A model generated the notes under the pieces. The model ran no database searches. It had not been told where the DNA came from and saw only the letters and a list, made by a program, of their open reading frames with translations. A stretch of 64,000 nucleotides of DNA, from assembly GCA_016206685.1 (NCBI GenBank), contig JACQRB010000014.1, forward strand, positions 9,152 to 73,151, read 5' to 3'. A program made the translations under genes and the position numbers. The DNA is from Candidatus Omnitrophota bacterium. Lineage in GTDB: Bacteria > Omnitrophota > Gorgyraeia > Aquiviventales > Aquiviventaceae. Shown here piece by piece: positions 8,756-44,400 of the stretch (its first letter is position 1; each line of letters begins with the position of its first letter).

Positions 8756-9873
8756 CGGACCGGGCGCTGCGGCAAGTTTTAGTGCTGATCATCGCCACCC
8801 TCATCGGCCTGGGGTGCGTGGCGGTGTATTCCACGACGGCGATCATGGCGCATGAGACCTATGGGTCCAGCCTCCACTTCGTCGTGACGCACCTCTTGGC
8901 CGTTGCCATTGGGCTGGGACTGAGTCTGGCCGTCCTGGCCATTCCGTATCCCCTCCTGCGGGGCAGCGCCAAGTGGCTGCTCCTGGTGAGCGTGGTGCTG
9001 TTGGTCCTGGTGTTGGTGTGCGGCCTGCAGGTGGGGGGCGCGCGTCGCTGGTTTCGGCTGTGGCACGTGAGCATTCAGCCGTCGGAATTCGCGCAGCTGG
9101 CGCTGGTGATCTACCTGGCTGACTTCCTGGCGCGCAAACAGGCCGTCGTCGAGCGGTTTCGGGACGGCTTTCTGCCTCCGGTGTTGGCGACGGGGATCAC
9201 GGCGGGCCTGGTGCTGCTCCAGCCGGATCTGGGGACGGCGATCGTCATGGGGGCCGTGGCGATGTTGCTGCTCATGATGGCGAAGGCGCGCTGGCAGCAC
9301 GTGGGATGGCTCACGGTGCTGGGGGCCGTGGCGCTGGCGGTGCTCATCGGCGCCGAGGGGTATCGGCGCAGACGCATGCTGGCGTTCCTGAATCCGTGGC
9401 AGGATCCAGCCGGCGTGGGATTTCAAATTCTCCAGTCCTACGTGGCCTTTGCCAATGGCGGGCTACCGGGGGTGGGGATCGGCGCGTCCATGCAGAAACT
9501 GTTTTATCTCCCCGGCGCTCACACCGATTTCATTTTTGCGATCGTGGCGGAAGAGCTGGGGCTGATCGGGACGACCGCGGTGCTGGCCCTCTTCGCGCTG
9601 TTCGTCGGCTGCGGCATCCGCATGGCCTTGGGCGTCGAGGATCCGTTTAACAAGTATCTGATCTGTGGGTGCGTGGGGCTGGTGGGTCTTGAAGCGATCA
9701 TCAACGTGGCGGTCGTCACCGGCTTGCTGCCCACGAAGGGACTCCCGATGCCCTTGGTGTCCTACGGCGGGACGGCGATGGTCAGCAATCTCTTGGCCTG
9801 CGCGCTGATTCTCCATGCCAGCCGCCGACGCCCGTGCGGCGTGCGGAGTGCGGCGTGCGGAGTAGATTCGTAA
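8752..9873 (+). CDS. ftsW: SEDS-family peptidoglycan polymerase FtsW
   Basis: About 10 TM segments with IQPSEFAQLALVIYLA, PDLGTA and THTDFIFA..EELG blocks. The last roughly 12 codons are encoded by the left arm of a heptamer repeat. Confidence 0.9.
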   Translation: MTDRALRQVLVLIIATLIGLGCVAVYSTTAIMAHETYGSSLHFVVTHLLAVAIGLGLSLAVLAIPYPLLRGSAKWLLLVSVVLLVLVLVCGLQVGGARRWFRLWHVSIQPSEFAQLALVIYLADFLARKQAVVERFRDGFLPPVLATGITAGLVLLQPDLGTAIVMGAVAMLLLMMAKARWQHVGWLTVLGAVALAVLIGAEGYRRRRMLAFLNPWQDPAGVGFQILQSYVAFANGGLPGVGIGASMQKLFYLPGAHTDFIFAIVAEELGLIGTTAVLALFALFVGCGIRMALGVEDPFNKYLICGCVGLVGLEAIINVAVVTGLLPTKGLPMPLVSYGGTAMVSNLLACALILHASRRRPCGVRSAACGVDS

Positions 9874-9943
9874 CATGCCAGGCGCTGTGTGTGAGCGTGA
9901 AACACCGTTACTCCGAACTCCGAACTCCGAACTCCGAACTCCA
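9834..9943. repeat. Heptamer tandem-repeat module (gtgcggN x4 ... actccga x5) at the ftsW/murG junction
   Basis: The left block gtgcggc gtgcgga gtgcggc gtgcgga lies at 9834-9861. After a 45-nt spacer, the right block actccga x4 plus actccac lies at 9909-9943. The arms are largely complementary. Confidence 0.85.
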
Positions 9944-15192: not shown

Positions 15193-16371
15193 ATGACCAC
15201 CAAACCCCTGGTCGTGTTGGATATCGGCTCCACCAAGGTCGCCTGCGCGGTCGGTCGCAGCCCCATCGTGCTGCGACCAACCGAGCAGGCCACCTGTGAG
15301 GTGATCGGGACGGGTGTGGCCTCCTATCCGACGCTCAAGAGCACGTGGCCGTGCGACCAGGCGCTGTTAGCCAGGACCATCGAGCAGGCCCTGGAGGAGG
15401 CGCATCTGGACACCTGGCCGGATCGGGCCATCGTCATCCTCACGCATCCTGCGCTGTCCCATCGAGCCGTGACGGCTCAACTGGATCTGGCTGATGAGCC
15501 GGTGACGATCCGCGGGCGGGACCTCGAGCGGCTGCACGCGCAGGCCGTCAGTCAGGCGCTCGAAGTGGATCGCGAGCCGCTGTTGCTGGATCCCTTGGGA
15601 TATGCGGGCAACGGGTTCGACGCGGCCGGCGATCCGCGGGGGCTGGTCGCGACTCGCGTCCACGGACGATTTCAGTTGATCGGGATCCCGATGGCGGTCA
15701 AACGCGCCGTCTTGCAGGCCCTGGACGCGGTCGGCCTTGAGTTGGACCGCGTGGTCTACAGTCTCCAGGCGGTCGTGGCCGCGTGCGTGGAAGAGTCGTG
15801 GTGGTCCAAGCGCGTGCTGCTGGTGGATCTGGGCGGCTGCTGCACGGATCTCGCCCTCTGGGACAACGGGCATCTGGTGCGCAGCACCTCCATTCCCTGG
15901 GGCGGGATGACCCTCGTCGAGGCCATCGCCACCGACGCTCGCATGACGATGGACCACGCCCTGACGGCGAGCCTGGAGGGAGTGAGCAGTCCCCACCCGA
16001 TCGTCCGGAAGGTCTTCAACGAACAACTGCGACTGGTGGAATCTTCGCTTCGTCACCTCCTGGAAGAGACCGCGCATCCTGACCGGGCCATCGTCACAGG
16101 CCGGGGGGCGTTGATCGGGGGGCTGGTGGAATGGGTCGAGCAGGTCAGCCGCACCAAGGCCGTGCTGGGGCGCAGTCCCCTGGCGAAAGGCCTGGGCGAT
16201 CTTGGGCGCCAGATGGCCCTGAGTCCTTCGCTGGGCCTGCTCCAACGCATCTGCCAGACGGCCGCCGCCTCCTCACGCGGCGCGCCGAGCCGCGTCGGGA
16301 TTCAAGGATCCGGCCGGCTTATTGACCGCCTCCTTGCGCGCACCCGGTCCCTCCTGATCGAATACTTCTAG
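15193..16371 (+). CDS. ftsA: Divergent actin-like division protein FtsA
   Basis: Contains VVLDIGSTKVACAV, VDLGGCCTDLALW and GGMTLVEAIA blocks of the FtsA/actin ATPase fold. It sits after ftsQ but is quite divergent. Confidence 0.75.
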   Translation: MTTKPLVVLDIGSTKVACAVGRSPIVLRPTEQATCEVIGTGVASYPTLKSTWPCDQALLARTIEQALEEAHLDTWPDRAIVILTHPALSHRAVTAQLDLADEPVTIRGRDLERLHAQAVSQALEVDREPLLLDPLGYAGNGFDAAGDPRGLVATRVHGRFQLIGIPMAVKRAVLQALDAVGLELDRVVYSLQAVVAACVEESWWSKRVLLVDLGGCCTDLALWDNGHLVRSTSIPWGGMTLVEAIATDARMTMDHALTASLEGVSSPHPIVRKVFNEQLRLVESSLRHLLEETAHPDRAIVTGRGALIGGLVEWVEQVSRTKAVLGRSPLAKGLGDLGRQMALSPSLGLLQRICQTAAASSRGAPSRVGIQGSGRLIDRLLARTRSLLIEYF

Positions 16372-16394
16372 TTTTTCGGTTCGACTCCTCGTCG

Positions 16395-16424
16395 TTGACG
16401 CTGCCTTCCCGGCTGTGTTACAGT
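16395..16424 (+). promoter_or_regulatory. Putative sigma70-type promoter for yggS (possibly leaderless mRNA)
   Basis: TTGACG (16395-16400), an 18-nt spacer, then TACAGT (16419-24). The GTG start at 16432 lies only 7 nt after the -10 box. Confidence 0.4.
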
Positions 16425-16431
16425 ACCCCTC

Positions 16432-17094
16432 GTGTTGAGCGAGAACCTGGCGCGCGTCCGTGCGCGGATTCGACAAGCCTGCCACCGTTGCGGTCGCGAT
16501 CCCGCGTCTGTCACGTTGGTCTGCGTGACGAAGGGGATCGCGATTGAGGCGATTCAGGAAGCGGTGTCGCTGGGCGTGACGGATCTCGGGGAAAACCGCG
16601 TCCAGGAAGCGAAGCCCAAGCGTGCGGCGTTCGCGGCGGGAGAGGCCCGCTGGCATCTGATCGGCCATCTGCAGCGCAACAAGGCCAAAGACGCCATTGG
16701 GCTGTTTGGGGTCATCCATTCGCTCGACTCCGTGGCGCTGGCGGAAGAGCTTGAGCGCCAGGCCGCCAAGCGGCAGCAGATCCTCGACGCGTTGGTGCAG
16801 GTCAACGTGTCGGGTGAGGCCACGAAATTCGGCTGCACGCCTGCAGAGGCCCCGTCGCTGGCTCAAGCGATTGGCCGGCTACCGCATCTGCGATTGATGG
16901 GATTGATGACCATGGCTCCCTTCGTTGAAAATCCAGAACACGCTCGTCCGTATTTTCGTCGCTTGCGTCTCTTGCGTGAGGAGCTCTTGCGCTCATCACT
17001 GCTCTTATCAATGGGCATGTCCAACGATTTCGAAGTGGCGATTGAAGAAGGGGCCGATTTCGTCCGCATCGGCTCCGCCATTTTCAAGCCATGA
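16432..17094 (+). CDS. yggS: PLP-binding homeostasis protein YggS/YlmE family
   Basis: Contains LVCVTKG (Lys for PLP), HLIGHLQRNK, LVQVN and LSMGMSNDFEVAIEEGADFVRIGSAIF. Confidence 0.85.
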   Translation: MLSENLARVRARIRQACHRCGRDPASVTLVCVTKGIAIEAIQEAVSLGVTDLGENRVQEAKPKRAAFAAGEARWHLIGHLQRNKAKDAIGLFGVIHSLDSVALAEELERQAAKRQQILDALVQVNVSGEATKFGCTPAEAPSLAQAIGRLPHLRLMGLMTMAPFVENPEHARPYFRRLRLLREELLRSSLLLSMGMSNDFEVAIEEGADFVRIGSAIFKP

Positions 17095-17963
17095 AACCTC
17101 AATCACTCCGGAAGTTGCAGATCGGAGTGATTGGCGCAGGCAATATGGGCCGGGCGCTGATCCGGGGGCTCCTCCGAGCGGGTGTCCCGTCAGGACGCGT
17201 GGTCGTGGCGGAGGCCGATGCCTCGACGAGGCAGCGGGTGCGCCGGGCATTTCGCGTGCGCGGCGCGCTCTTGGATGAGATGGCGAGGCGCTGCGACGTG
17301 ATTGTCATCGCCGTGAAGCCCCAGGATCTGCCGCCGGTGCTGGATCAGCTCGCTCGCGGTCTTCGCGCGCGCGGGCCTGCCCGCCCCGGGTCTCGCGGGG
17401 CAGGCGGGCGTCAACCGCTCGTCATCTCGATTGCGGCGGGGGTGAGGCTGGCCGCGCTTGAGGGCAGGCTCAGCCGGGTGCCGGTGGTGCGCGTGATGCC
17501 CAACCTGCCGGCCAAGGTGGGCTGTGGGATTTCAGCCATGGCGACCGGCCGCGCGGTTGGCGCCTCGCATCTGGCCATCGCCAGAGCGATCTTTGGCTGT
17601 GTGGGAGAGGTCGTCGAGCTGCCCGAGCGGCTGTTTGATGCCGTGACGGCCATCAGCGGCTCAGGGCCGGCCTACTTTTTCCTCATCTTCAAGGCGTTGC
17701 GCGATGCCGGCTCGCGCGCCGGGCTGCCGAACGCGATCGCGCAGCGGTTGGCGCTTCGCACCGCCTCCGGCAGCGTCGCGCTGGCCGAGGCTTCGTCCCA
17801 ACCGCTTGAAGACCTGATCGCCCAAGTGGCCTCGAAGCGCGGGACGACGGAGGCGGCCTTGAACGTGTTTCGCCGGTATCGCTTGGCCGAGAGCATCCAA
17901 GCGGGTGTGGCGGCTGCCGTCCGGCGTTCACGCGCGTTGTCGAAAGAACATCGGGGACGTTGA
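17091..17963 (+). CDS. proC: Pyrroline-5-carboxylate reductase
   Basis: Contains IGVIGAGNMGRALI, AVKPQD, RVMPNLPA, SGSGPAYFF and SKRGTTEAAL. It carries a short R/G-rich insertion. Confidence 0.85.
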   Translation: MKPQSLRKLQIGVIGAGNMGRALIRGLLRAGVPSGRVVVAEADASTRQRVRRAFRVRGALLDEMARRCDVIVIAVKPQDLPPVLDQLARGLRARGPARPGSRGAGGRQPLVISIAAGVRLAALEGRLSRVPVVRVMPNLPAKVGCGISAMATGRAVGASHLAIARAIFGCVGEVVELPERLFDAVTAISGSGPAYFFLIFKALRDAGSRAGLPNAIAQRLALRTASGSVALAEASSQPLEDLIAQVASKRGTTEAALNVFRRYRLAESIQAGVAAAVRRSRALSKEHRGR

Positions 17964-22293: not shown

Positions 22294-22352
22294 CCGCTAG
22301 ACCTTGTCCCATTAGCCCCGAGCCCAGAACCCCGAACCAACAGCGGTTTTCA

Positions 22353-22808: not shown

Positions 22809-23577
22809 GCTGTGTCGCCTGGGTCCGTTCGCGATTCATACCTACGGCGTGGCGCTGGCGGCGGCGTTTCTGCTGACGCTCATCCTGGCGCGGCAGGCCC
22901 TCCGTCAGGACCTCAAGGGCCTGGTTCCGATGGATGAGCCGGCGCTGGCCGACTGGGCCGTGTGGGCGATGGGCGGCGGGATCCTCGGCGGGCGGGCCTT
23001 CTATGTGGCGTTGAACTGGGGCGTCTACGCGGCGCATCCGCTTGAGATCGTCGCGCTGTGGCACGGAGGCCTGGTCTGGTACGGCGGTCTTGCAGGAGGC
23101 GTCCTCGCCACCTGGGCATACCTGGCGCGGCGGGGCCTGGGATTCCGGCGGGGGATGGATCAGGTGATTCCGTTTGTCGTGCTGGGCCATGCCCTGGGGC
23201 GCCTGGGATGTTTTGCCAATGGCTGCTGCGCGGGCATCCCCACGCGCGCTTGGTGGGGGGTGCAGTTTCCCGGCACCGTTGAGCGCGTGGTGCCGACCCA
23301 GGTGTTGGAATCCGCGAGCTTGGTCGTGCTCTACCTCGTCCTGCGAGTCTTGCAGCGTCCGGCGATCTTGCGCGCTCCCGGGAGGCTGTTTGGGATGTAT
23401 CTGCTTGGCTATGGTCTCATCCGCTGGACAGTGGAGTTCTGGCGGGCGAACGAACGTCTGTGGGGCGGGTGGACGATCTATCAGGGTCTGAGCCTTGCCG
23501 TGATGATCGTGGGGGCCACGCTTATGAGGCGACGGACCACGCATGGCGCAAACCTATCAGTTTGTCGTGGGGCCTGA
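22798..23577 (+). CDS. lgt: Prolipoprotein diacylglyceryl transferase
   Basis: Contains IHTYGVALA, GGRAFYV, WHGGLVWYGGLAGG, GRLGCFANGCC and PTQVLES. Confidence 0.9.
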   Translation: MYPELCRLGPFAIHTYGVALAAAFLLTLILARQALRQDLKGLVPMDEPALADWAVWAMGGGILGGRAFYVALNWGVYAAHPLEIVALWHGGLVWYGGLAGGVLATWAYLARRGLGFRRGMDQVIPFVVLGHALGRLGCFANGCCAGIPTRAWWGVQFPGTVERVVPTQVLESASLVVLYLVLRVLQRPAILRAPGRLFGMYLLGYGLIRWTVEFWRANERLWGGWTIYQGLSLAVMIVGATLMRRRTTHGANLSVCRGA

Positions 23578-24577
23578 CGAAGCCCGTCTGCGGATCGATC
23601 GCTATCTGCTGCGGCATCTGCCTCAGGGCTTCTCCAGAACGATCATCCAACGCGCCATTCGCGGGGGCGCGATCACCATCGCCGGCCGCGCGCTCAAGGC
23701 GCATCGCCGGCTGCGAGCCGGCGAGACCGTCGTGGCACGCGTGGCCGGCCCGAGCGCCGGTCCCGATCCCCAGACGGTCGTGCCTGAGCCCATGGCGCTT
23801 GCCGTCGTGTATGAAGATGCGCACGTGCTGGTGGTGAATAAGCCCCCACGCCTCGTGACGCACCCGGCACCGGGCCATCCCTCCGGGACGCTGGTCAACG
23901 CCATCGCCTGGCACCTCTCTCAACATGCGGAATGCGGAACGCGGAATGCGGAACGAAGTGCGTCCACTCCGCACTCCGCACGCCGCACTCCGCACCTACC
24001 CAGGGCGGGAATCGTGCATCGGCTCGATCAGGATACCTCCGGGCTGTTGGTCGTCGCCAAAACGGCGCTGGCGCTGCGCGAGCTGGCCAAGCAGTTGAAA
24101 GCCCGCACCATGAGCCGCCGATACCTGGCGCTTGTCGAAGGGCATGTCCCTGTTGACGAGGGGACGATCAATGTCGGCGTGGGGCGTCACTTGACGCACC
24201 GGAAGGAGATGGCGGTCCGCTACCTCGGCGGCCGTGAAGCGGTCACGCATTATCGCGTGTTGAAACGCTTCAGTCTCTCGCTTGCCTACACGCTGCTCGA
24301 GCTGCGGCTGGAGACGGGGCGGACGCATCAAATCCGGGTACACCTGGCCCACCTTGGGTATCCCGTCCTGGGTGATGCGCTCTACAGCCGCCGTTCAGCC
24401 GGCTCCTGGAACGCGCTCGGCATCGCGCGGCAACTCCTGCATGCCTATGCCGTGCGGTTCATGCATCCGGCGACGCATCAACCACTCGAGCTGAGCGTCG
24501 GCCTCCCGGTGGATATGCAACACTGGCTTGATGGTTTTGATGCGCGGGCAGCGGTGGCCGTGAAAAGGAGGAGGTAG
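23543..24577 (+). CDS. rluD: 23S rRNA pseudouridine synthase RluD family, carrying an in-frame repeat insertion
   Basis: An S4 domain N-terminus is followed by VVNKPPRLVTHP, GIVHRLDQDTSGLLVVAK and TGRTHQIRVHLAHLGYPVLGD. The heptamer module at 23925-23997 encodes about 25 extra aa just before the catalytic HRLD block. Confidence 0.9.
   Translation: MAQTYQFVVGPDEARLRIDRYLLRHLPQGFSRTIIQRAIRGGAITIAGRALKAHRRLRAGETVVARVAGPSAGPDPQTVVPEPMALAVVYEDAHVLVVNKPPRLVTHPAPGHPSGTLVNAIAWHLSQHAECGTRNAERSASTPHSARRTPHLPRAGIVHRLDQDTSGLLVVAKTALALRELAKQLKARTMSRRYLALVEGHVPVDEGTINVGVGRHLTHRKEMAVRYLGGREAVTHYRVLKRFSLSLAYTLLELRLETGRTHQIRVHLAHLGYPVLGDALYSRRSAGSWNALGIARQLLHAYAVRFMHPATHQPLELSVGLPVDMQHWLDGFDARAAVAVKRRR
23925..23997. 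repeat. Heptamer tandem-repeat hairpin module inside rluD
   Basis: atgcgga atgcgga acgcgga atgcgga, a 13-nt spacer, then actccgc actccgc acgccgc actccgc. The total length keeps the rluD frame and introduces no stop. Confidence 0.9.
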
Positions 24578-24581
24578 GAAC

Positions 24582-25022
24582 ATGCAGCGGCAAGGCTGGT
24601 GGCTGGTGGGAGCGGTGGTGGGCGGCGGTCTGTTAATGGTGGGGCTTCGCGCGCAGGAGCGCCAGGCCGGTCGTCCGCCCGCGTCGAAGGCTGCAGACGG
24701 TTCGGCGCAAGCGGTCGTCTTCACCTTTGCGGATGAGGCTGGAGTCCAGGCCTTCGCCAACGTCTGGCGCCAGCGGGAGCAGGTGTTAGCGAGGTTGGCG
24801 ACGCTCCAGGAGTACTGGGCTCGCGAGCAGCAGGAGCTCGCCGGACTCACCCAACGTCTGGCTGCGGAGTATCATGTGGATGTGGCCAAATCCTACGCCT
24901 TGGATCCGCAGCGCAAGGTGCTCATCGAACAGTCGCCTTCTTCCCCCCCGGCCCCTGTGCTACCCCAACCGACCGAACCCCCTCCTGTAATGAACGGAAG
25001 AACGGAAGAACTAAAGAACTGA
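24582..25022 (+). CDS. Hypothetical exported protein (N-terminal TM/signal, coiled coil, Pro-rich tail)
   Basis: The ORF has an N-terminal hydrophobic segment (WWLVGAVVGGGLLMVGL). I recognise no family. Its last codons lie in the octamer repeat. Confidence 0.5.
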   Translation: MQRQGWWLVGAVVGGGLLMVGLRAQERQAGRPPASKAADGSAQAVVFTFADEAGVQAFANVWRQREQVLARLATLQEYWAREQQELAGLTQRLAAEYHVDVAKSYALDPQRKVLIEQSPSSPPAPVLPQPTEPPPVMNGRTEELKN

Positions 25023-25061
25023 AGAAGCGTTCTTCAGTTCTTAGGTTCCTTGGTTCTTCAG
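24992..25061 (+). terminator. Octamer tandem-repeat hairpin; likely transcription terminator or RNA-stability element
   Basis: (gaacggaa)x2 gaactaaa gaactgaa, spacer gaagcg, then ttcttcag ttcttagg ttccttgg ttcttcag. This is a long imperfect inverted repeat spanning the stop codon at 25020-25022. No clear U-tract follows. Confidence 0.5.
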
Positions 25062-33194: not shown

Positions 33195-33318
33195 CCGTGA
33201 GGCCGAGAAAGGCAAACTCGCCGAAAGGCGGGGTCGCAAAGCTTCGGGTCTTCACTCTCTGAACACACGCTGTGGGAGGCGTGTGGCGTTCTCGGGGAGC
33301 AGATAGCCGGGCTGCCGA
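33195..33318 (+). promoter_or_regulatory. c-di-GMP-I (GEMM-I) riboswitch aptamer
   Basis: AGGCAAACUCGCCGAAAGGCGGGGUCGCAAAGCUUCGGG aligns almost position-for-position with the Vibrio Vc2 aptamer core GGGCAAACCAUUCGAAAGAGUGGGACGCAAAGCCUCCGG (GNRA loop, GCAAAGC bulge). A second helix ends ...CGGGGAGCAGAUAGCCGGGCUGCC, compared with CCGGUAGGUAGCGGGGUUACC in Vc2. Confidence 0.78.
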
Positions 33319-33338
33319 ATAGGCGGACCGGTTTTTTA
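33307..33338 (+). terminator. Intrinsic terminator forming the riboswitch expression platform
   Basis: The stem ccgggctgcc / ggcggaccgg (one mismatch, one G-U) is followed by TTTTTT. Its 5' arm overlaps the 3' end of the aptamer. Confidence 0.65.
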
Positions 33339-33365: not shown

Positions 33366-33566
33366 ATGGCTCTTCATATGATTGTATTAGTTATAGTAAA
33401 TGTCGTTAGGCGGAGCAGGACAAGCGGGCAAGCGATGATCGAGTACGCGATCCTCTTCGCGGTGATCGCGGTGCTCACCGTCATCGGCGTGACGACCTTC
33501 GATGACTCGGTCAAGACCGCCTTGCAAGGCTTCTTCAATGCGGCAGCCAACAAGATCGCCAAATAA
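33366..33566 (+). CDS. flp: Flp-family pilin (short, classical type), paralog 1
   Basis: Leader ...RRSRTSG then QAMIEYAILFAVIAVLTVIG. This is the G/xxxxEY prepilin motif with a hydrophobic helix and a short tail. The exact start is uncertain because the 5' region is AT-rich. Confidence 0.75.
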   Translation: MALHMIVLVIVNVVRRSRTSGQAMIEYAILFAVIAVLTVIGVTTFDDSVKTALQGFFNAAANKIAK

Positions 33567-33567
33567 A

Positions 33568-33635
33568 ATGCGGAATGCGGAATGCGGAATGCGGAATGTC
33601 AATCGCCACGCCGCACGCCGCACTCCGCACTCCGC
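33568..33635. repeat. Heptamer tandem-repeat hairpin module between pilin 1 and pilin 2
   Basis: atgcgga x4 (33568-33595), a 12-nt spacer, then acgccgc x2 plus actccgc x2 (33608-33635). Its first ATG is the in-frame candidate start of pilin 2. Confidence 0.9.
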
Positions 33636-33801
33636 ACTTGGAAAGGGACAGGCGGTGCTGGAATACGCCGTCCTGATTGGGATCGTCGCCGCGGCGCTCA
33701 TCGCCATGCAGCTCTACGTCCGGCGATCCATCCAGGCGAACCTCAAGGTGCTGGAAGACCAGGTGAACGCGGAAGCGGTGAAACCTGTACTCGTCCAGTA
33801 G
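33568..33801 (+). CDS. Flp-like pilin, MQxYxxR subfamily, paralog 2
   Basis: ...GKG then QAVLEYAVLIGIVAAALIAMQLYVRRSIQANLKVLEDQV. The leader peptide is encoded by the heptamer module, and the start could be 33568 or 33589. Confidence 0.7.
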   Translation: MRNAECGMRNVNRHAARRTPHSALGKGQAVLEYAVLIGIVAAALIAMQLYVRRSIQANLKVLEDQVNAEAVKPVLVQ

Positions 33802-33876
33802 ATTAGTACGCAGAACTAACCGCGGTCTTCGCAGTCGCTCTGCGGTTTCCGCGGTTGCAAAGGGAGGGGAGACAGC

Positions 33877-34092
33877 ATGAAGAAGAGGCGACTGGTTACT
33901 GGTTACTGGTCACTGGTCACTACCAGAGGGCAGAGCACGCTGGAATACATCCTGGTGCTGGCTGCCATTATTGCCGCAATCGCGATCGCGGCGGGCACGC
34001 TCATTAAACCGGCGGTGACCAAGACGATGAACGACACCAAAACGGTGATCGAGGACGCGACAGGGAAGCTCAAGGACGGGCTGAGCCTGTGA
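33877..34092 (+). CDS. Flp-family pilin (short type), paralog 3
   Basis: SD gggagggg precedes the start. The leader MKKRRLVTGYWSLVTTRG is followed by QSTLEYILVLAAIIAAIAIAAG. The leader contains a 4x heptamer tract (33892-33926). Confidence 0.8.
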   Translation: MKKRRLVTGYWSLVTTRGQSTLEYILVLAAIIAAIAIAAGTLIKPAVTKTMNDTKTVIEDATGKLKDGLSL

Positions 34093-34127
34093 AGGGCGCG
34101 AGCCCGACGGGAGGAGGTGAGCAGACG

Positions 34128-34490
34128 ATGACGCGCAGGGGCATGGGAGGACAGTCCACGGCGGAGTACGTCATCCTCATCAGCGTGGTGCTGGCGGCGA
34201 CGGTCGCCATGCAGATGTACGTCAAGCGCGGATTGCAGGGCAAGGTCAAGGACGTGACCGATAACGTGGGCTTTGGCCTGAAGGACGCCGGCTTCACGGC
34301 GCTGACCAACCAGTACGAGCCTTACTATGCGGTCTCGGACTTCAACGTCAGCCAGAAGCAGAGCACCAAGACCAGCGTGACGGACGGCTACAAGGTGAGC
34401 CGCGTGACCGATCTCGATGAGACGAAGCGGACCGGGGTGTCCAAGCAAGAGGTGGACCTCAGCAAAGACAATCAGTGGCTCGCGCAGTAA
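34128..34490 (+). CDS. Flp-like pilin with extended C-terminal domain, paralog 4
   Basis: SD GGAGGAGG precedes the start. MTRRGMGG is followed by QSTAEYVILISVVLAATVAMQMYVKRGLQGKVKDV and a tail of about 80 aa. Confidence 0.8.
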   Translation: MTRRGMGGQSTAEYVILISVVLAATVAMQMYVKRGLQGKVKDVTDNVGFGLKDAGFTALTNQYEPYYAVSDFNVSQKQSTKTSVTDGYKVSRVTDLDETKRTGVSKQEVDLSKDNQWLAQ

Positions 34491-34497
34491 CACGCAC

Positions 34498-34881
34498 ATG
34501 GCGAAGGGGGTGAAGGTGACAATGAGCAGGCTGACAGGGCGACGCGGGCCCCGTAGGACGTTTGTCCAACGGGGCGGGCAGAGCACGGTGGAGCTCGCCG
34601 TGCTGGTTGCCGTGATTACGGGGGCGCTCCTGGCGATGCAGATTTACGTCAAGCGCGGCGCGATGGGCAAGCTCCGGGACGCCGCGGACCAAGCCGGCGA
34701 GCAATTCACGCCGTTGAACACCACCTCCGAATTCACGGTCACCAGGAACAGCGCCAGGACGGAAAAGACCGAGGCGACCGGACTGACGACGGCGACCCTC
34801 ACGCAAGATGACCAAACCCGCACGGGAGCGGAACAGGTGACCACGCGGCTCGATGAGGAAAAGCTCTTCAAGCAACCATAA
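34498..34881 (+). CDS. Flp-like pilin with extended C-terminal domain, paralog 5
   Basis: ...FVQRGG is followed by QSTVELAVLVAVITGALLAMQIYVKRGAMGKLRDAADQAGEQF. The alternative start is ATG 34522. Confidence 0.8.
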   Translation: MAKGVKVTMSRLTGRRGPRRTFVQRGGQSTVELAVLVAVITGALLAMQIYVKRGAMGKLRDAADQAGEQFTPLNTTSEFTVTRNSARTEKTEATGLTTATLTQDDQTRTGAEQVTTRLDEEKLFKQP

Positions 34882-35299
34882 GCGCGTTGCCGCTTGCGCC
34901 GCGCAGTCCGTGACGGAATACGCCGTCCTGATCGGGCTGCTGACCGCCGCGGTGCTCGGGATGCAGCTCTACCTCAAGCGCGGCATCCAGGCCGGCGTCA
35001 AGGTGGCGGCGGACCAGATGAGCCCGCACGCCAACGACCCGACCGGAGAGAAGGCGCAGGTTGATGGCATGCGCTACGAGTCCGGCGAACGGAGCCAGGC
35101 CGTCGTCGCCACGGGCAGCGTCTTGGAGCGGAAGTCGGCGGCGCGGACGCTGCGCCAGCGGACCGCCAACATGACCGCCACCACAGGCGGCGGGGTGCAG
35201 CGGCAGATTGCCACGGATACCGCCGCCACGTCGGGCGTCCTGCCGGAAGGGGGAAGTGGGGTGGCGTCTCGCTCGGAGGTGGTGGTGGATGTGCGCTAA
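34853..35299 (+). CDS. Flp-like pilin with extended C-terminal domain, paralog 6
   Basis: ...ACAA is followed by QSVTEYAVLIGLLTAAVLGMQLYLKRGIQAGVKVAADQM. Ala replaces Gly at the -1 position. It overlaps the previous gene by 29 nt. Confidence 0.7.
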   Translation: MRKSSSSNHKRVAACAAQSVTEYAVLIGLLTAAVLGMQLYLKRGIQAGVKVAADQMSPHANDPTGEKAQVDGMRYESGERSQAVVATGSVLERKSAARTLRQRTANMTATTGGGVQRQIATDTAATSGVLPEGGSGVASRSEVVVDVR

Positions 35300-35636
35300 G
35301 CGCGGGCAAAGTCTGGTGGAATACGCCGTCTCCCTGGCGGTCATCATCGCCGCGCTCCTCGCCGTCCAGATCTACCTCAAACGGGGCGTGGCGGGCAAGC
35401 TGCGCACCGCCGCGGATTCCATCGGGGAGCAGTACGCCCCCCGGCAGACCACCTCCAGCCTCATCTTCCAGACCCACAGCGACACCGTCACCGAGTCCAA
35501 GCTGGAAAAGGACAAACTCATCGGGGGCGGCAAGAAGGCGGATGTCATGGTCACCACCACGACGATCAACGATGAGACGACGCAACGCACCGGCACGGAA
35601 ACCGTGGACTCCCTCGGCACCGACCTCTGGGACTAA
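35289..35636 (+). CDS. Flp-like pilin with extended C-terminal domain, paralog 7
   Basis: SD ggaggtgg precedes the start. MCAKRG is followed by QSLVEYAVSLAVIIAALLAVQIYLKRGVAGKLRTAADSIGEQY. Confidence 0.8.
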   Translation: MCAKRGQSLVEYAVSLAVIIAALLAVQIYLKRGVAGKLRTAADSIGEQYAPRQTTSSLIFQTHSDTVTESKLEKDKLIGGGKKADVMVTTTTINDETTQRTGTETVDSLGTDLWD

Positions 35637-35637
35637 C

Positions 35638-36660
35638 ATGACCAGCGACCAGCGACCAAATCACTTGGTCTCATGTCTCATGTCTCATGTCTCATGTCTT
35701 CGTGCCAACAAGGGTCAAGCCCTCCTTGAACTCGCCATCTTCGGCTCGCTCTTCATCCTGGTCCTCGGCGTGCTCCTGAACTATGGGCTCAACGCCGACT
35801 ACAGCCAGCGCGCCAAGATGGAAGCCTTTCGGCAAGCCCTCGCCCTGTCATCCGATTCGAACATCACCGGAGGCGGCTCGTACGCCCTGGCGAAAGATCG
35901 CTACATCCCCAACCCCTCCAACCCCTTCGCCCTCGGCTCGGACATTCCGGTGTCTGAGTCAGGCAGCGTCATTCGTGATTTCCGGTTGGACGAAACCGCG
36001 GATACGGTCAGTGAGCTGCCGCGCGTCAACATCACGGTGAACGGAGAGCCGTTTGATTGCCCCAGCGCGGGCACCGGCTGCACGACAGCCGGCTTTCGCA
36101 CCGAGCCGCTGACCGGCTCCCTGGACCGCTACCAGGAGGTCTACGGCAGCTCCAACGTCAACGGCGGCGGCGACACCGTCACGGTCATTGATTCCTGCGA
36201 GGGCGAGGTCGTCAGCTTTGAGAGCTGCGTGCGCCAGGCGCGGATGATCGTGGATTCCGACGCCTGCACCGCCGAGTGCAAGCGGGGGAAGTTCGAGGGC
36301 AGCGACGACTGCGCCTCGACCTGTGCTGCGCCCATGACCGTGCCGTGGTACGCCCAGGGCGCCGTCAAAGATACAAGCGGCAAATGGACGTTTCCGAACT
36401 TGAATACGCTCTTTACCGGCATCACGACGACGGGACTGCAGCGCGGCTCGAGCCGCCACACCACGATGGCAAGCACCTTGCACAAGCAGGAAACCGCCTC
36501 AGCCGTCAGCACCACCGACTCGGTCAACTGGCGCGATGACGTCACCCGCAAAGTCGTGTATAAACCACTTGGCGACACAAGCGGAACCCCCGTGACGCAG
36601 TCGGTCACCACCACGCCTAAAGATGAGCAGAACAGCACGACCTGGACAACCCCCTGGTAA
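35638..36660 (+). CDS. TadE-like pseudopilin with Cys-rich C-terminal domain
   Basis: ...RANKG is followed by QALLELAIFGSLFILVLGVLLNYGLNADYSQRAKMEAFRQA, a TadE/G-like N-terminus. The 5' end is built from two heptamer tracts (35640-35702). The C-terminal half has at least 8 Cys. Confidence 0.7.
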   Translation: MTSDQRPNHLVSCLMSHVSCLRANKGQALLELAIFGSLFILVLGVLLNYGLNADYSQRAKMEAFRQALALSSDSNITGGGSYALAKDRYIPNPSNPFALGSDIPVSESGSVIRDFRLDETADTVSELPRVNITVNGEPFDCPSAGTGCTTAGFRTEPLTGSLDRYQEVYGSSNVNGGGDTVTVIDSCEGEVVSFESCVRQARMIVDSDACTAECKRGKFEGSDDCASTCAAPMTVPWYAQGAVKDTSGKWTFPNLNTLFTGITTTGLQRGSSRHTTMASTLHKQETASAVSTTDSVNWRDDVTRKVVYKPLGDTSGTPVTQSVTTTPKDEQNSTTWTTPW

Positions 36661-36664
36661 CCCA

Positions 36665-36925
36665 ATGCGGAACTTAGCTCGGACACTCCGCACTCCACAC
36701 TCCGCACTCCGCATGCGGAGGGGTCAAGCATCGCTGGAAATGACCGTCGCGCTCATCGGGGCGCTTCTTTTGTTGTTCGGTAGCTTAAAAGTTTTCTTAT
36801 GGATCAATGAACGGCTGGTGAAGCGACAGGTCAGCTATGAAGACACGCGGGTAGCCGCTGGGAGTCAGGATTCCCTGAAGCTGTGGGAGGAACCCACGGA
36901 GCCGCTCAAGATCTTCAATGAGTGA
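36665..36925 (+). CDS. Small TadE-like pseudopilin
   Basis: ...MRRG is followed by QASLEMTVALIGALLLLFGSLKVFLWINERL. The leader is encoded by the heptamer module at 36665-36719. The start is 36665 or 36713. Confidence 0.65.
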   Translation: MRNLARTLRTPHSALRMRRGQASLEMTVALIGALLLLFGSLKVFLWINERLVKRQVSYEDTRVAAGSQDSLKLWEEPTEPLKIFNE

Positions 36926-41456: not shown

Positions 41457-44400
41457 ATGCGCATTGACCGCTGGCTCCAACTGAAACGCACGAAGGCGTT
41501 CTGCATCAGCCTGGCGATGCTCTTCGCCGCGGAGCAGTGCGTCTGGGGCGCGGACCTCAACCTGCTCCACACCCTGCAGCTCTCCGGCGAGCAGCAGCGC
41601 CAGCTCGACCAGGCGCTCTCTGCCGCGGTCCTGACCATCTACCAAGACCTCTACAGCCGCGAACCCTCTTCCGAAGAGCTGCGTGAGGCGCTGGAGTTCC
41701 TGCGCCGCTCGCCCCAACTGGCTCACTTGGTGGAACGGCTCAGCCAATCCCCGGAATCCCGCTGGAGACTCCGCCAGCTCAACCCCGAGCGGATCAAGCA
41801 GCGCAAGGCGGAAGCCGCCCAGATTTCGCAAGCCGTCAGCCGCACCGTCGGCGGCTTCCTCCGCGACGTATTGCACTCATCACTCATCACTCATCACTCA
41901 TTACTGGTCATTACACCCACCCTCACCCTCCAACCTGCCCCGATAGTTCTGGCACAACTTGACGAGCCGGCAATTCAGTCCATCGAATCCTGGCTCCGCC
42001 AACCCGATACCCTGTGCGCCAACTGCGCCCCCAACGCCCTCGCTCCCTTACTGGGGATGGTCGGCGTGAACGTCTCCCGTGAGACCCTCACCGCCCAGGC
42101 GTTTCTCCTGGACTACCTCAGTGGGAATGCGGAATTCGGAATACTCCGCACTCCGCACTTCGAAGGTCCGTTGTTCATCAGCATGGATACCGTCCAACGC
42201 CTCGCCCAAGCGTACGGCTTGACGCTGAACGCCGTCGAGCTCACCAGCGACGAGCTCCTCCTGCTGAAGTACCCCATGATTGCCGCCCTGGACCTCACGC
42301 AGGACGGACAAGCCGACCACTACGTCGTCGTGCAGGACGCCAATGAGGCGCGGGTGGTCTACTACGAATCCGACGGCACGCGCGAATCCCTGCCCACGCA
42401 TGAGTTCCTACGGCTCTTCACCGGCTTTGCCCTCGTGGCCTCAGCCGACTCGTATGGGCGACTCTTGAATCAATCCCAAACGAGGACCATCGCTGGCGGA
42501 AGGTCCCGCCGGCAAGAGCTTCCGGACCTCGACAAACTCTTTGAGGAGCCCTCGCTTGGCGACACCTTGATGTCGGTCGGGATGAGCCTTGCCTCGGCGT
42601 ATTTTTCGCCGATGGGCTCCGGTGATTTCCTGTCGAATTTCGGCAGCTCGGCGCTGTACTCCCAAGTCAGCCAAGGCGCCACCCACCTCGCCGTCCGCAC
42701 CTTCGGCTGGAGTCCCGGGGCGGCTCAAATCTTCGGCTATGGCGTCACCGGCGCGTTGAGCGGAGCGACCACTGGCGCCTATCAGTCAAATTACCGGTGG
42801 AACAGCGACTCGTGGCTAGGGAGTACCATGGGGGGGTGGTTTGACATTCAGGCATATCCCATCTCCACAGGGGCAGCCATGGGAGCCCTCAAGGGTGCCG
42901 CGATCGGCGGGGGCTCGCTCCTCGCCTACGAAGCCCTCAAGGACACCAGCTTCTACGAGAGCAATCCCTTTGTGGCACGGCAGATGACGTCGCTGGTGGG
43001 AGGGGCAGGGGGCTACCTCGGCTTTTACGGTCTGACCTCGCTGGCCGGCATTGATCCCGCAATCACCGTTTCGAAAAGTTACGTCGATGCGCAACAGGAC
43101 TTCAAACTCGGGAACGCGACGCTGGCAAACCTCACCCTCATTCCGGAAGCCTTTGAAAAGCAGGGGGGCTATCAGGTGTGGGCCTCGCAGGCATTTGGGG
43201 GCGCTCTTGGCGGGTTGTACCTGGCATTCTCCGATCCTGCCTTCCAGACCAGCCTGGTGTCTCAGGGCATCGGGCTCGCCGCTGAGTACGCCGTACCCAA
43301 CTCCAGATATTCCCGCCTCTTGGGTCAAAGTGCTGGCTCCCTCGGCGCAGCCGCCTTGGGGTATGGAAGCGTCGGGTGGCCTGAGGTCCTCAGGGACGCG
43401 GCGATCTCCGGTCTCTCATCACTCGCCCTACAATCCCTGGGCGGCGGATTCGACCGCAACACGGGCAAGAACAACTGGGGGCTTACGCCCGTCCAGATGG
43501 CGGCGGTCGAGTATGCGGGGACCACCCTCCTGCGCGCGACATGGGACAGCGGCGCGGGATGGTACAGGGGGTCGAATGATGCTCTGTCGTCCACCTTCAC
43601 CGACTCCCTTGGTCGCAACCTCAGAAACCTCTCCCTGGACTATGCGACCTTCGGCAGGACCACCCCGGCTTGGACGCGCGGGGCAGGCGGCTGGGTGGAG
43701 GCGCAGTACATCGAGAAGCTCGCCCAGGTGTCCGGCATCGCCAACTTCAAAGCCAATGCCGACCACGCCATGCAAACCACCGGTCAGTCCTGGAATCAAT
43801 TCGTCAAAAGCGGTCGGCTGGATGACATCCTGCCCTCTCCGGCATTCTCCCTGGTGGACTATACGGCTTCCACCCTCCACTCCGCCGCCGTTGAGAACCT
43901 GGCGTTTCCGATGAGAGACTTTGCCTCACGGATGCTGCCGCAAACGCCGCCTCAGTCAATTCCCTTTAAGGATGGTACGATCGGCAAGCTCCAGGTCGCC
44001 GGAGCCACCTTCGGTCCTCCTGGAGGATCAGACCTCGTGGTGAACAGCTACGCGCTCTACAAAGACGGTCAGGAGCTTGGTCAGTATGTTGGAGTTGACC
44101 CGAAAACAGGCACGATCCGCGTCGCTGGCGACATCGAGGGCGATGCTGTTCAGTACTATGATGACCAGGGCAAGCTGACCGCAGCCATCACCGAGACGGG
44201 CATCCTGACGCCCCAGGTCGCCGGCGCGACCTTTCGTTCGCCAGTAGGGACTGACACCTTCACCGTTGACACCTACGAGCTCCGTGACTTCAGCGGCACC
44301 CCGTTGGGGCAGTTCATCGGCTTCGATGCCCAGGGCAAAGTCCGCGTCGCCGGTGACCTCGAAGGCGCCCAGGTGCGGTACTTCGATCAGGCTGGTCAGC

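Follow-up and report, generated by a model that had tools for sequence, protein, structure and literature searches.

We analysed a stretch of 64,000 nucleotides from contig JACQRB010000014.1 of a Candidatus Omnitrophota bacterium (hereafter the window), in which the junction between ftsW and murG carries two arrays of 7-nt units that form complementary arms around a loop. This module belongs to a family that is multi-copy, is present in many phyla and shows no target-site duplication (TSD). The architecture of the family (period 7, about four units per arm, complementary arms, G-rich arm first) is long-lived, while the heptamers change in concert and the loops turn over fast. We tentatively favour the reading that the modules are small non-coding hairpin-forming repeats comparable to REPINs (paired, hairpin-forming repetitive extragenic palindromic (REP) sequences) or Rickettsia palindromic elements (RPEs), i.e. 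selfish or neutral passengers, rather than regulators of the flanking genes, which spread and are homogenised by a process acting on their hairpin form. Recognition of the single-stranded hairpin by a putative trans-acting enzyme of the RAYT (REP-associated tyrosine transposase) or IS200 type could drive the spread, and conversion from unit to unit and from arm to arm, by slippage and template switching within the palindrome, would result in concerted evolution. The modules are retained between genes, at the ends of genes, in leader peptides that are cleaved off and, in frame, in protein loops and linkers.

The ftsW–murG module and its state in relatives

The 5′ arm of the ftsW–murG module (the index module) is located at 9834–9863 and reads GTGCGGC GTGCGGA GTGCGGC GTGCGGA GT, i.e. 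(GTGCGGM)×4 followed by GT. The 3′ arm, (ACTCCGA)×4.7, is located at 9910–9942. Both heptamer blocks are present as given in a preliminary description of this DNA, which was made from the letters alone; the loop between them (9864–9909) is 46 nt long and not 45 nt as stated there. It contains the ftsW stop codon TAA (9871–9873) and the ATG of the murG open reading frame (ORF) at 9875. That the module overlaps the 3′ codons of ftsW and possible 5′ codons of murG and adds no stops was also correct: arm 1 encodes the C-terminal tail of FtsW (PCGVRSAACGV), which amounts to its final 12–13 codons, with the Pfam domain stopping earlier at residue 359 of 373, and arm 2 is part of a 27-codon N-terminal extension of the murG ORF ahead of the GT28 domain. 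The FtsW tail and the MurG extension at this junction would simply be the element itself.

The window and two relatives, L230 and L231, are ~92% identical in DNA across the dcw cluster. L231 shares the ftsW–murG module with the window, and 60 of 61 arm positions are identical, while the loops are ~78% identical. In L230, which has the same operon and an FtsW that is 93% identical, the junction has no module and carries unrelated sequence instead. A growth of the arms around the ancestral ftsW–murG junction was considered and rejected, since the window's loop and the module-less L230 linker are not significantly similar. The mraY–murD junction was found in three states: it is empty in the window, carries (TTCGAGG)4..(CCTCGAA)4 in L231 and has a longer GGGTSMA module in L230. 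Within one FtsW cluster (at least 90% identity) we found about six different tails (CGVRSAACGVDS, NAECGLRIAD, NAECGMRIAD, NVECGMR.., HCGLPIANCGLD and CGSWIVDRGSE), plus one that is module-free.

For two members of this cluster, the ftsW–murG junction was compared with that of the window at the DNA level. The loops are homologous, yet all arm units differ, with GTGCGGM/ACTCCGA in the window and TTGTGGA-like/AATCCAA ×4.7 in L236. Both array-wide differences are compensatory (C–G to T–A and G–C to T–A), and the unit number is 4.7 in the window, L231 and L236 alike. A homologous loop between arms in which all units have changed and are compensated indicates concerted evolution in place.

The same observation would be expected if the modules were a self-organising by-product of replication and repair that needs no dedicated enzyme. 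Given a short inverted tandem array, slippage would homogenise the units within an arm, template switching would copy changes between the arms, and selection against long palindromes and frameshifts would cap the arms at ~30 nt. Besides the concerted change of all 4.7 units in situ and the compensatory arm changes, the absence of TSDs agrees with such an origin, and so do the 14-nt super-units in the index arm and at 410–439 of the window, which show that pairs of units have been duplicated. Correction of quasi-palindromes by template switching is an established mutational mechanism (cf. the abstract of PMC3820800). However, this origin does not account for the exclusivity of period 7, the dominance of GCGGART in many phyla, a 72-nt class of modules that shares a loop at unrelated loci, the G-rich-first polarity or the appearance of modules at new sites, and we regard it as rather unlikely.

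Architecture, spread and long-term retention of the family

When searching one genome per species with the pattern GCGGAATGCGGAA-N(1–31)-ACTCCGCACTCCGC, we found 102 loci, all of them in metagenome-assembled genomes (MAGs) and none in an isolate genome. Labelled hosts are Acidobacteriota, Gemmatimonadota, Planctomycetota, Verrucomicrobiota, Chloroflexota, Nitrospiraceae, Omnitrophota, Armatimonadota and a few others. A second pattern, degenerate at the R/Y position of the unit, gave at least 120 loci on metagenome contigs. On 2.9 million viral contigs this pattern matched only three times, and a phage-borne family was therefore rejected. A blastn search with the consensus module against plasmids and phages gave no match, although the low-complexity filter may hide one. 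Several module-carrying contigs are binned as Bifidobacteriaceae; one of them, L015, codes for a long protein that looks Planctomycetota-like when read by eye, so these contigs may be mis-binned.

The genome loci and the metagenome matches listed together gave 276 modules of the form (GCGGART)n/loop/(AYTCCGC)n, typically with four 7-nt units, a loop and four inverted units over ~60–90 bp. Among these listed matches, the number of units per arm has a strong mode at four, the loop has a median length of 15 nt (range 0–68 nt), the inverted-arm hairpin arrangement by which REPINs are recognised is present in 276/276 modules and the arm order is swapped in none. Other inverted period-7 units at these loci include GAGACAG, GGGATGA, TTCRAGG, GGGTSAA and CGGTRTT. 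In orthologous groups with 72–95% flank identity the 4+4 unit count is kept. A discrete class of 72 nt, comprising 25 of the ~115 4+4 modules, has a semi-conserved 16-nt loop nGAnGGnCGnnCnTCG and is found at unrelated loci, and the TTCRAGG family is present at two sites of L231, murE–murF and mraY–murD. Both observations indicate a copy-like spread. Neither a TSD nor a target motif was found around 121 modules, where flank matches at k = 2–9 equalled the shuffled control, and no long-range arm pairs enclosing an ORF were seen. GCGGART-type arms are also dense around sequences that are tRNA-like by appearance, in a Gemmataceae MAG (L087, 3870–5270) and on a metagenome contig (L218, 70–310).

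In 220 of the 222 GCGGART-like modules among the listed matches the G-rich arm comes first. On both strands the G-rich repeats run 5′ to 3′ towards the centre, as they would after a head-to-head fusion of telomeres. The modules could accordingly be imagined as scars that a new bacterial activity of break healing or repeat synthesis has left behind, or as products that it maintains. Such an activity would be largely sequence-independent and would measure out units of 7 nt in about four copies: templated short G-rich repeats would be added to each 3′ end of a double-strand break, and the two ends would then be joined. We consider this highly improbable. The four G-runs per arm would permit G-quadruplex formation, and AGTGCGG equals the core of the Haemophilus uptake sequence. 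Readings as a Chi site, a DNA-uptake sequence or a G-quadruplex were considered, and none was adopted.

Several of our results weigh against a spread as selfish or neutral passengers. The G-rich arm also comes first in 28 of 34 modules built from other, unrelated heptamers, a polarity not expected from independent families of transposons. Loops are completely different between most copies of one genome, unlike those of typical MITEs (transposable elements of the miniature inverted-repeat type) or REPINs, and such a spread does not account for the fixed 7-nt unit and the size of four copies. In the GCGGART family, deviations of single units are rarely compensated (3/158). No mobilising gene was found, and a crude scan for the RAYT motif in six-frame translations of the window and ~1.6 Mb of loci was negative. 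Because this reading does not explain the unit length, the copy number, the polarity and the dominance of GCGGART, and no candidate enzyme was found, a host function at the DNA level and a self-organising origin in repair each keep some probability. A further point of this kind comes from a second module of the window.

This module, (ATGCGGA)×4/10–13 nt loop/(ACTCCGC)×4 at 23925–23995, lies in frame within an RluD-like gene (23543–24577), where it encodes amino acids 129–151 (HAECGTRNAERSASTPHSARRTPH) and splits the PseudoU_synth_2 domain between ..GTLVNAIAWHLSQ and PRAGIVHRLDQDTSG... Nearly all of 41 Omnitrophota orthologs have kept a module at this site, and in 41/41 the flanks on either side are in one frame, which suggests that the modules are translated rather than removed from the RNA. 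All nine orthologs with DNA (the window, L226–L229 and L232–L235) have 4+4 units, with five heptamer types among them. Of 28 positions, 21.2 are paired between the two arms of one module and 16.9 between arms of different orthologs. In the fitted alignment 82.9% of the cells are paired compared to 72.2% in shuffles, both sides have changed in 15 of 24 pairs, and none of 500 shuffles matched the observed paired percentage, number of double-changed pairs or covariation score, figures for which the register was fitted per sequence and whose signal is driven by few independent lineages. Slid controls were paired at 48% or less. In five orthologs the GCGGART arms are near the consensus, with proteins that are 55–66% identical and synonymous third positions that are saturated (40–53% identity); six of the seven unit positions are conserved well past the saturated synonymous sites. 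A second hot spot for heptamer modules lies ~110 residues further downstream in the RluD orthologs (L226 1065–1130, L227 2227–2289 and L233 1332–1391), and the gene in the window has no module there.

That nearly all orthologs have kept the module at the RluD site, with covariation of its arms, could just as well reflect a function for the host. Modules might act as a DNA cruciform or protein-binding site (recognised by nucleoid, gyrase or repair proteins, a role that has been proposed for bacterial interspersed mosaic elements (BIMEs)) or as an RNA hairpin, with the architecture being selected while the sequence drifts. Arm complementarity and architecture that are kept as the heptamers change, and the conservation of unit positions past synonymous saturation, would fit such a function. 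The same holds for the presence of GCGGART across phyla with one degenerate R/Y position, which resembles a protein-binding motif, and for a polarity rule that is valid across families. On the other hand, copies lie in unrelated genes and positions with no shared context, their presence or absence varies among 92%-identical relatives at junctions of essential genes with no obvious consequence, and the differing heptamers at one site speak against a single sequence-specific binding protein. A function as RNA is further disfavoured by the lack of strand preference and by A·C mismatches that are as frequent as independence predicts. Overall, a host function seems doubtful to us, and we continue to prefer selfish or neutral passengers that spread through their hairpin.

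Gene context, orientation and further arrays in the window

To place modules relative to genes, 265 unique modules were positioned with a self-trained ORF caller, whose ORFs cover 82% of the bases. We found 95 modules to be intergenic, 39 within the first 150 nt of a called ORF, 9 within the last 90 nt, 25 overlapping an ORF end, 23 at contig ends and 74 (about 28%) deep inside ORFs. Intergenic and gene-end positions thus hold ~63% of the modules compared to the ~18% of bases outside called ORFs, and given this ORF coverage they are enriched and deep-ORF positions depleted. The location at gene junctions proposed in the preliminary description therefore holds as an enrichment, but it does not apply to the copies in the RluD-like gene and in a giant ORF of the window, nor to the 74 modules deep in ORFs.

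Pfam domains are in one frame on either side of a module in a class I aminoacyl-tRNA synthetase, DnaE, PurL, an SNF2 helicase, GlnE, a GH95 glycosidase and RluD. PurL has three modules, and that of the SNF2 helicase lies within the SNF2 domain. In-frame modules encode a peptide of the type SAECGVRNAE..loop..HSALRTPHSA and insert ~20–26 residues into loops or linkers of housekeeping proteins that are unrelated to one another. None of the six frames of a GCGGART array contains a stop codon, a permissive property by which such arrays can be tolerated in coding DNA. We rejected it as a special feature, since about 50–70% of heptamers share it. The length of in-gene modules modulo 3 was likewise discarded, because module boundaries are set by unit edges and the length carries no information. 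A 30-aa module peptide searched against 1.8 billion representative proteins gave nine matches, with a query that is too short to inform. In L027 a module (2828–2892) merges GlcD-like and GlcE-like coding regions, whose identities were read from the translation, into one ORF.

The modules had also been described as oriented, with one mismatch per unit that is A·C on the plus and G·U on the minus transcript. This mismatch pattern was confirmed for the modules at 23925, 33567, 36664 and 42124. The index module is an exception, with mismatches of the G·A and C·U types and strands that fold alike (−48.1 vs −49.3 kcal/mol). Two window modules of the A/C type are predicted to fold with −40.6 and −42.5 kcal/mol as plus-strand RNA vs −53.2 and −56.1 kcal/mol as minus-strand RNA, i.e. 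the plus-strand hairpins are 12–14 kcal/mol weaker. The uniform A/C type on the plus strand of the window is real but a local feature. The consensus of the family is its own reverse complement, so orientation can be read only at the R:Y position. In an unbiased metagenome sample, among the matches listed, this position is nearly independent between the arms (AT 90, GC 50, GT 57, AC 51), and 28 A·C-rich modules stand against 27 G·U-rich ones on the sense strand. A sample selected for A/C gave a 2:1 excess of A·C on the sense strand (63 vs 31). The corresponding weakening of the sense-strand hairpin (66 vs 34) was gone in the unbiased sample and is not claimed. The self-reverse-complementary consensus and the balance in the unbiased sample do not support an oriented element.

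An oriented element would have suited the role first suggested for the modules, that of a cis-acting RNA at operon junctions that functions in transcript processing, attenuation or translational coupling. Several features would fit it. The hairpins are predicted to be very stable (−40 to −56 kcal/mol, z-scores −6 to −9), four window copies are of the A/C type on the plus strand, and the loop at ftsW–murG and at mraZ–rsmH contains both the stop and the start codon, so that a terminating ribosome would open arm 1. Nevertheless, the module equals its own reverse complement, the unbiased sample has no orientation bias, 28% of the copies are deep in ORFs, and the junction module is missing from L230 despite its close relationship. 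None of the 3′ arms is followed by a U-tract (the following sequences ACAAGGTATT, ACCTACCC and CACTTGGAAA are without a T-run), and an intrinsic terminator was therefore rejected. At the gathering threshold no Rfam family matched at the modules, with only miRNA-hairpin noise far below it. In-gene copies, strand symmetry and A·C mismatches that are not selected against leave a role in RNA processing or attenuation unsupported, and we regard it as very unlikely.

The window contains seven exact period-7 runs, compared to 0.1 expected from dinucleotide-preserving shuffles, and no other period between 4 and 15 is enriched over such shuffles. All remaining modules of the preliminary description (a weak one at 322–360, those at 23925, 33568, 36665 and 42126, and an octamer version at 24992) could be located. 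The weak one is a degenerate module over the mraZ–rsmH junction (319–439). Its 5′ arm (319–346) reads GTGGATT GCGAATT GCGGAAT GGGGATT, the rsmH start lies within its long loop, and its 3′ arm (410–439), which consists of two 14-mers (CCATCCGAACGCCG), had been missed. A clearer version is present in the close relative L230. The octamer module at 24992–25061, (GAACGGAA-like)×4.4/GCG/(TTCTTCAG-like)×4, lies ~150 nt upstream of a tRNA-Glu gene. A short 2+2 module with no loop (42124–42162) is in frame within a giant ORF that starts at 41457 (..SGNAEFGILRTPHF..). The same ORF harbours a solo (CACTCAT)×4.6 array at 41874–41905 (+), and a solo C-rich array, (CCCCGAA)×3.3, was found at 22316–22338 (+).

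Five of the ~11 heptamer arrays and modules are packed into 3.2 kb (33500–36720), where four consecutive pilin-like genes (33502, 33877, 35638 and 36623; two Flp-type and two TadE-like) have a heptamer array in each leader or 5′ region. The first is a 4+4 module, (AATGCGG)×4.6/loop/(CACKCCG)×4.6 at 33567–33638, in the 5′ or leader-peptide region of the Flp-type pilin ORF 33502–33801. In the second Flp-type pilin an (ACTGGTY)×4.4 array at 33891–33921 (+) lies in the leader peptide (MKKRRLVTGYWSLVTTRG|QSTLEY), followed by a partial inverted unit only. The N-terminal leader of the first TadE-like ORF has two arrays, (GACCAGC)×2.7 and (GTCTCAT)×4.6, at 35640 and 35668 (35640–35699, +), with arms that do not complement each other. 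The second TadE-like ORF (..MRRGQASLEM) has a truncated 1+4 module at 36664–36718, either immediately ahead of its N-terminus or within it, with one 5′ unit AATGCGGAA, a loop and (CACTCCG)×4. Upstream of this Flp/Tad pilus cluster we found a c-di-GMP-I-GGC riboswitch aptamer at 33202–33320 (+) (Rfam RF03167, 69.3 bits, gathering score 59).

Arrays whose unit length is not a multiple of three, placed in the 5′ or leader regions of the four adjacent pilin-like genes, are reminiscent of contingency loci, in which slippage of heptamer copy number would toggle reading frames and lead to phase variation, for instance of pilin genes. In Haemophilus, phase variation is reported to be driven by heptanucleotide repeats (PMC8262952). 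The stable unit number, 4.7 at ftsW–murG in the window, L231 and L236 and 4+4 at 72–95% flank identity, contradicts such switching, as does the presence of most copies in housekeeping genes, which a cell could not survive switching off, and phase variation is extremely unlikely in our view.

The giant ORF (41457–64000, +) is longer than 7,500 codons and exits the end of the window, and a Peptidase_C39-like domain lies close to its N-terminus; beyond ~44 kb the GC content falls from about 0.65 to 0.52–0.61. Within the dcw cluster, the gap between ftsI and murE (3363–3477) holds a 115-nt palindromic insertion that is not built from heptamers, with outer arms CCCACCACCTGCCTC/GAGGCAGGTGGTGGG and inner hairpins, and that is missing in the 92%-identical L230. 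In murD, a 108-nt in-frame segment flanked by the direct repeat CGACCGAGG is present in L230 (9310–9418) and L231 (4883–4991) and missing from the window (~8180–8192). Where the dcw cluster usually ends (15193–17963), ftsA is followed by genes encoding a YggS-like pyridoxal phosphate (PLP) protein (16432–17094) and ProC (17091–17963), and no ftsZ is present there.

Significance and relation to known repeat systems

If confirmed, the modules represent a common and seemingly uncatalogued class of repeats in poorly studied phyla (Omnitrophota, Planctomycetota, Acidobacteriota, Gemmatimonadota, Verrucomicrobiota, Chloroflexota, Nitrospirota and Armatimonadota). In-frame selfish DNA in genes, which is known mainly from Rickettsia, would then be widespread and would supply essential proteins with loops, tails and leader extensions of 20–26 residues. 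The modules would also offer a clean natural case of concerted and compensatory evolution in a palindromic tandem array, and the strict 7-nt unit, the four copies and the G-rich-first polarity would point to a new mechanism of spread or maintenance. In MAG annotation, modules cause false N-terminal extensions and gene fusions such as the single GlcD/GlcE ORF of L027. Module sites are hypervariable and could be used for strain typing.

The repeat sequence was not found in the papers searched, and keyword searches gave no matching description; the heptamer-built hairpin family is apparently undescribed. As the preliminary description states, it is not a CRISPR, since the arms are inverted, each locus has one pair of them and there are no arrays of 28–37 nt direct repeats with unique spacers.

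A REP unit is an imperfect palindrome of 20–40 bp with a GTAG or CGTC tag at one end, and a survey of REPs in prokaryotes covers such tagged palindromes, including REPs inside genes, and nothing built from heptamers (PMC3733652). Our modules resemble REPs, BIMEs and REPINs in being small, multi-copy and without TSD, in having inverted arms and a spacer that give a hairpin of 60–100 nt, in the coexistence of several families per genome, in their long residence at orthologous sites with lineage-specific sequences and in occasional in-gene copies (PMC3733652). The preliminary description rightly set the modules apart from classical REP/BIME by their tandem-heptad build: the arms consist of four tandem GCGGART units, are not self-complementary short palindromes, have the outer boundary RRT...AYY and carry no GTAG or CGTC tag. 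Moreover, about a quarter of the modules (74/265) are deep in ORFs and hence not extragenic, one unit sequence is common to many phyla, and the crude RAYT motif scan of the window and ~1.6 Mb of loci was negative.

With RPEs the modules share palindromic repeats that lie in frame in functional genes and add a peptide segment (PMC3733652). The heptamer family has no sequence relation to RPEs, and its hosts are an Omnitrophota MAG and at least eight phyla. RPEs are known only from Rickettsia, are 100–150 bp long and are not known to be built from tandem heptamers. MITEs such as Correia/NEMIS and ERIC are likewise short, non-coding and multi-copy and have terminal inverted repeats around a small core, whereas our modules have no TSD and mostly no conserved core; we know of no insertion sequence related to them. 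Like contingency loci, the modules have units that are not divisible by three in 5′ coding regions of surface-structure genes, but their copy number is stable, the array is paired with an inverted array and the genes concerned are mostly housekeeping genes.

Small repeats embedded in tandem heptamers were reportedly described in cyanobacteria by Elhai et al. in 2008. Short tandemly repeated repetitive (STRR) sequences, with units such as CCCCAGT, TTGGTCA and CAACAGT, are found in heterocystous cyanobacteria. They resemble our modules in consisting of tandem 7-nt units that are dispersed in many copies. To our knowledge, a fixed 4+4 inverted architecture, in-frame copies in genes and concerted evolution of arms have not been described for STRRs. 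The units found here (GCGGART, TTCRAGG, GGGTSAA and others, in non-cyanobacterial MAGs) differ from the STRR consensus. For the type of unit from which the ftsW–murG module and its family are built, the closest precedent known to us is the STRR heptamers of cyanobacteria.

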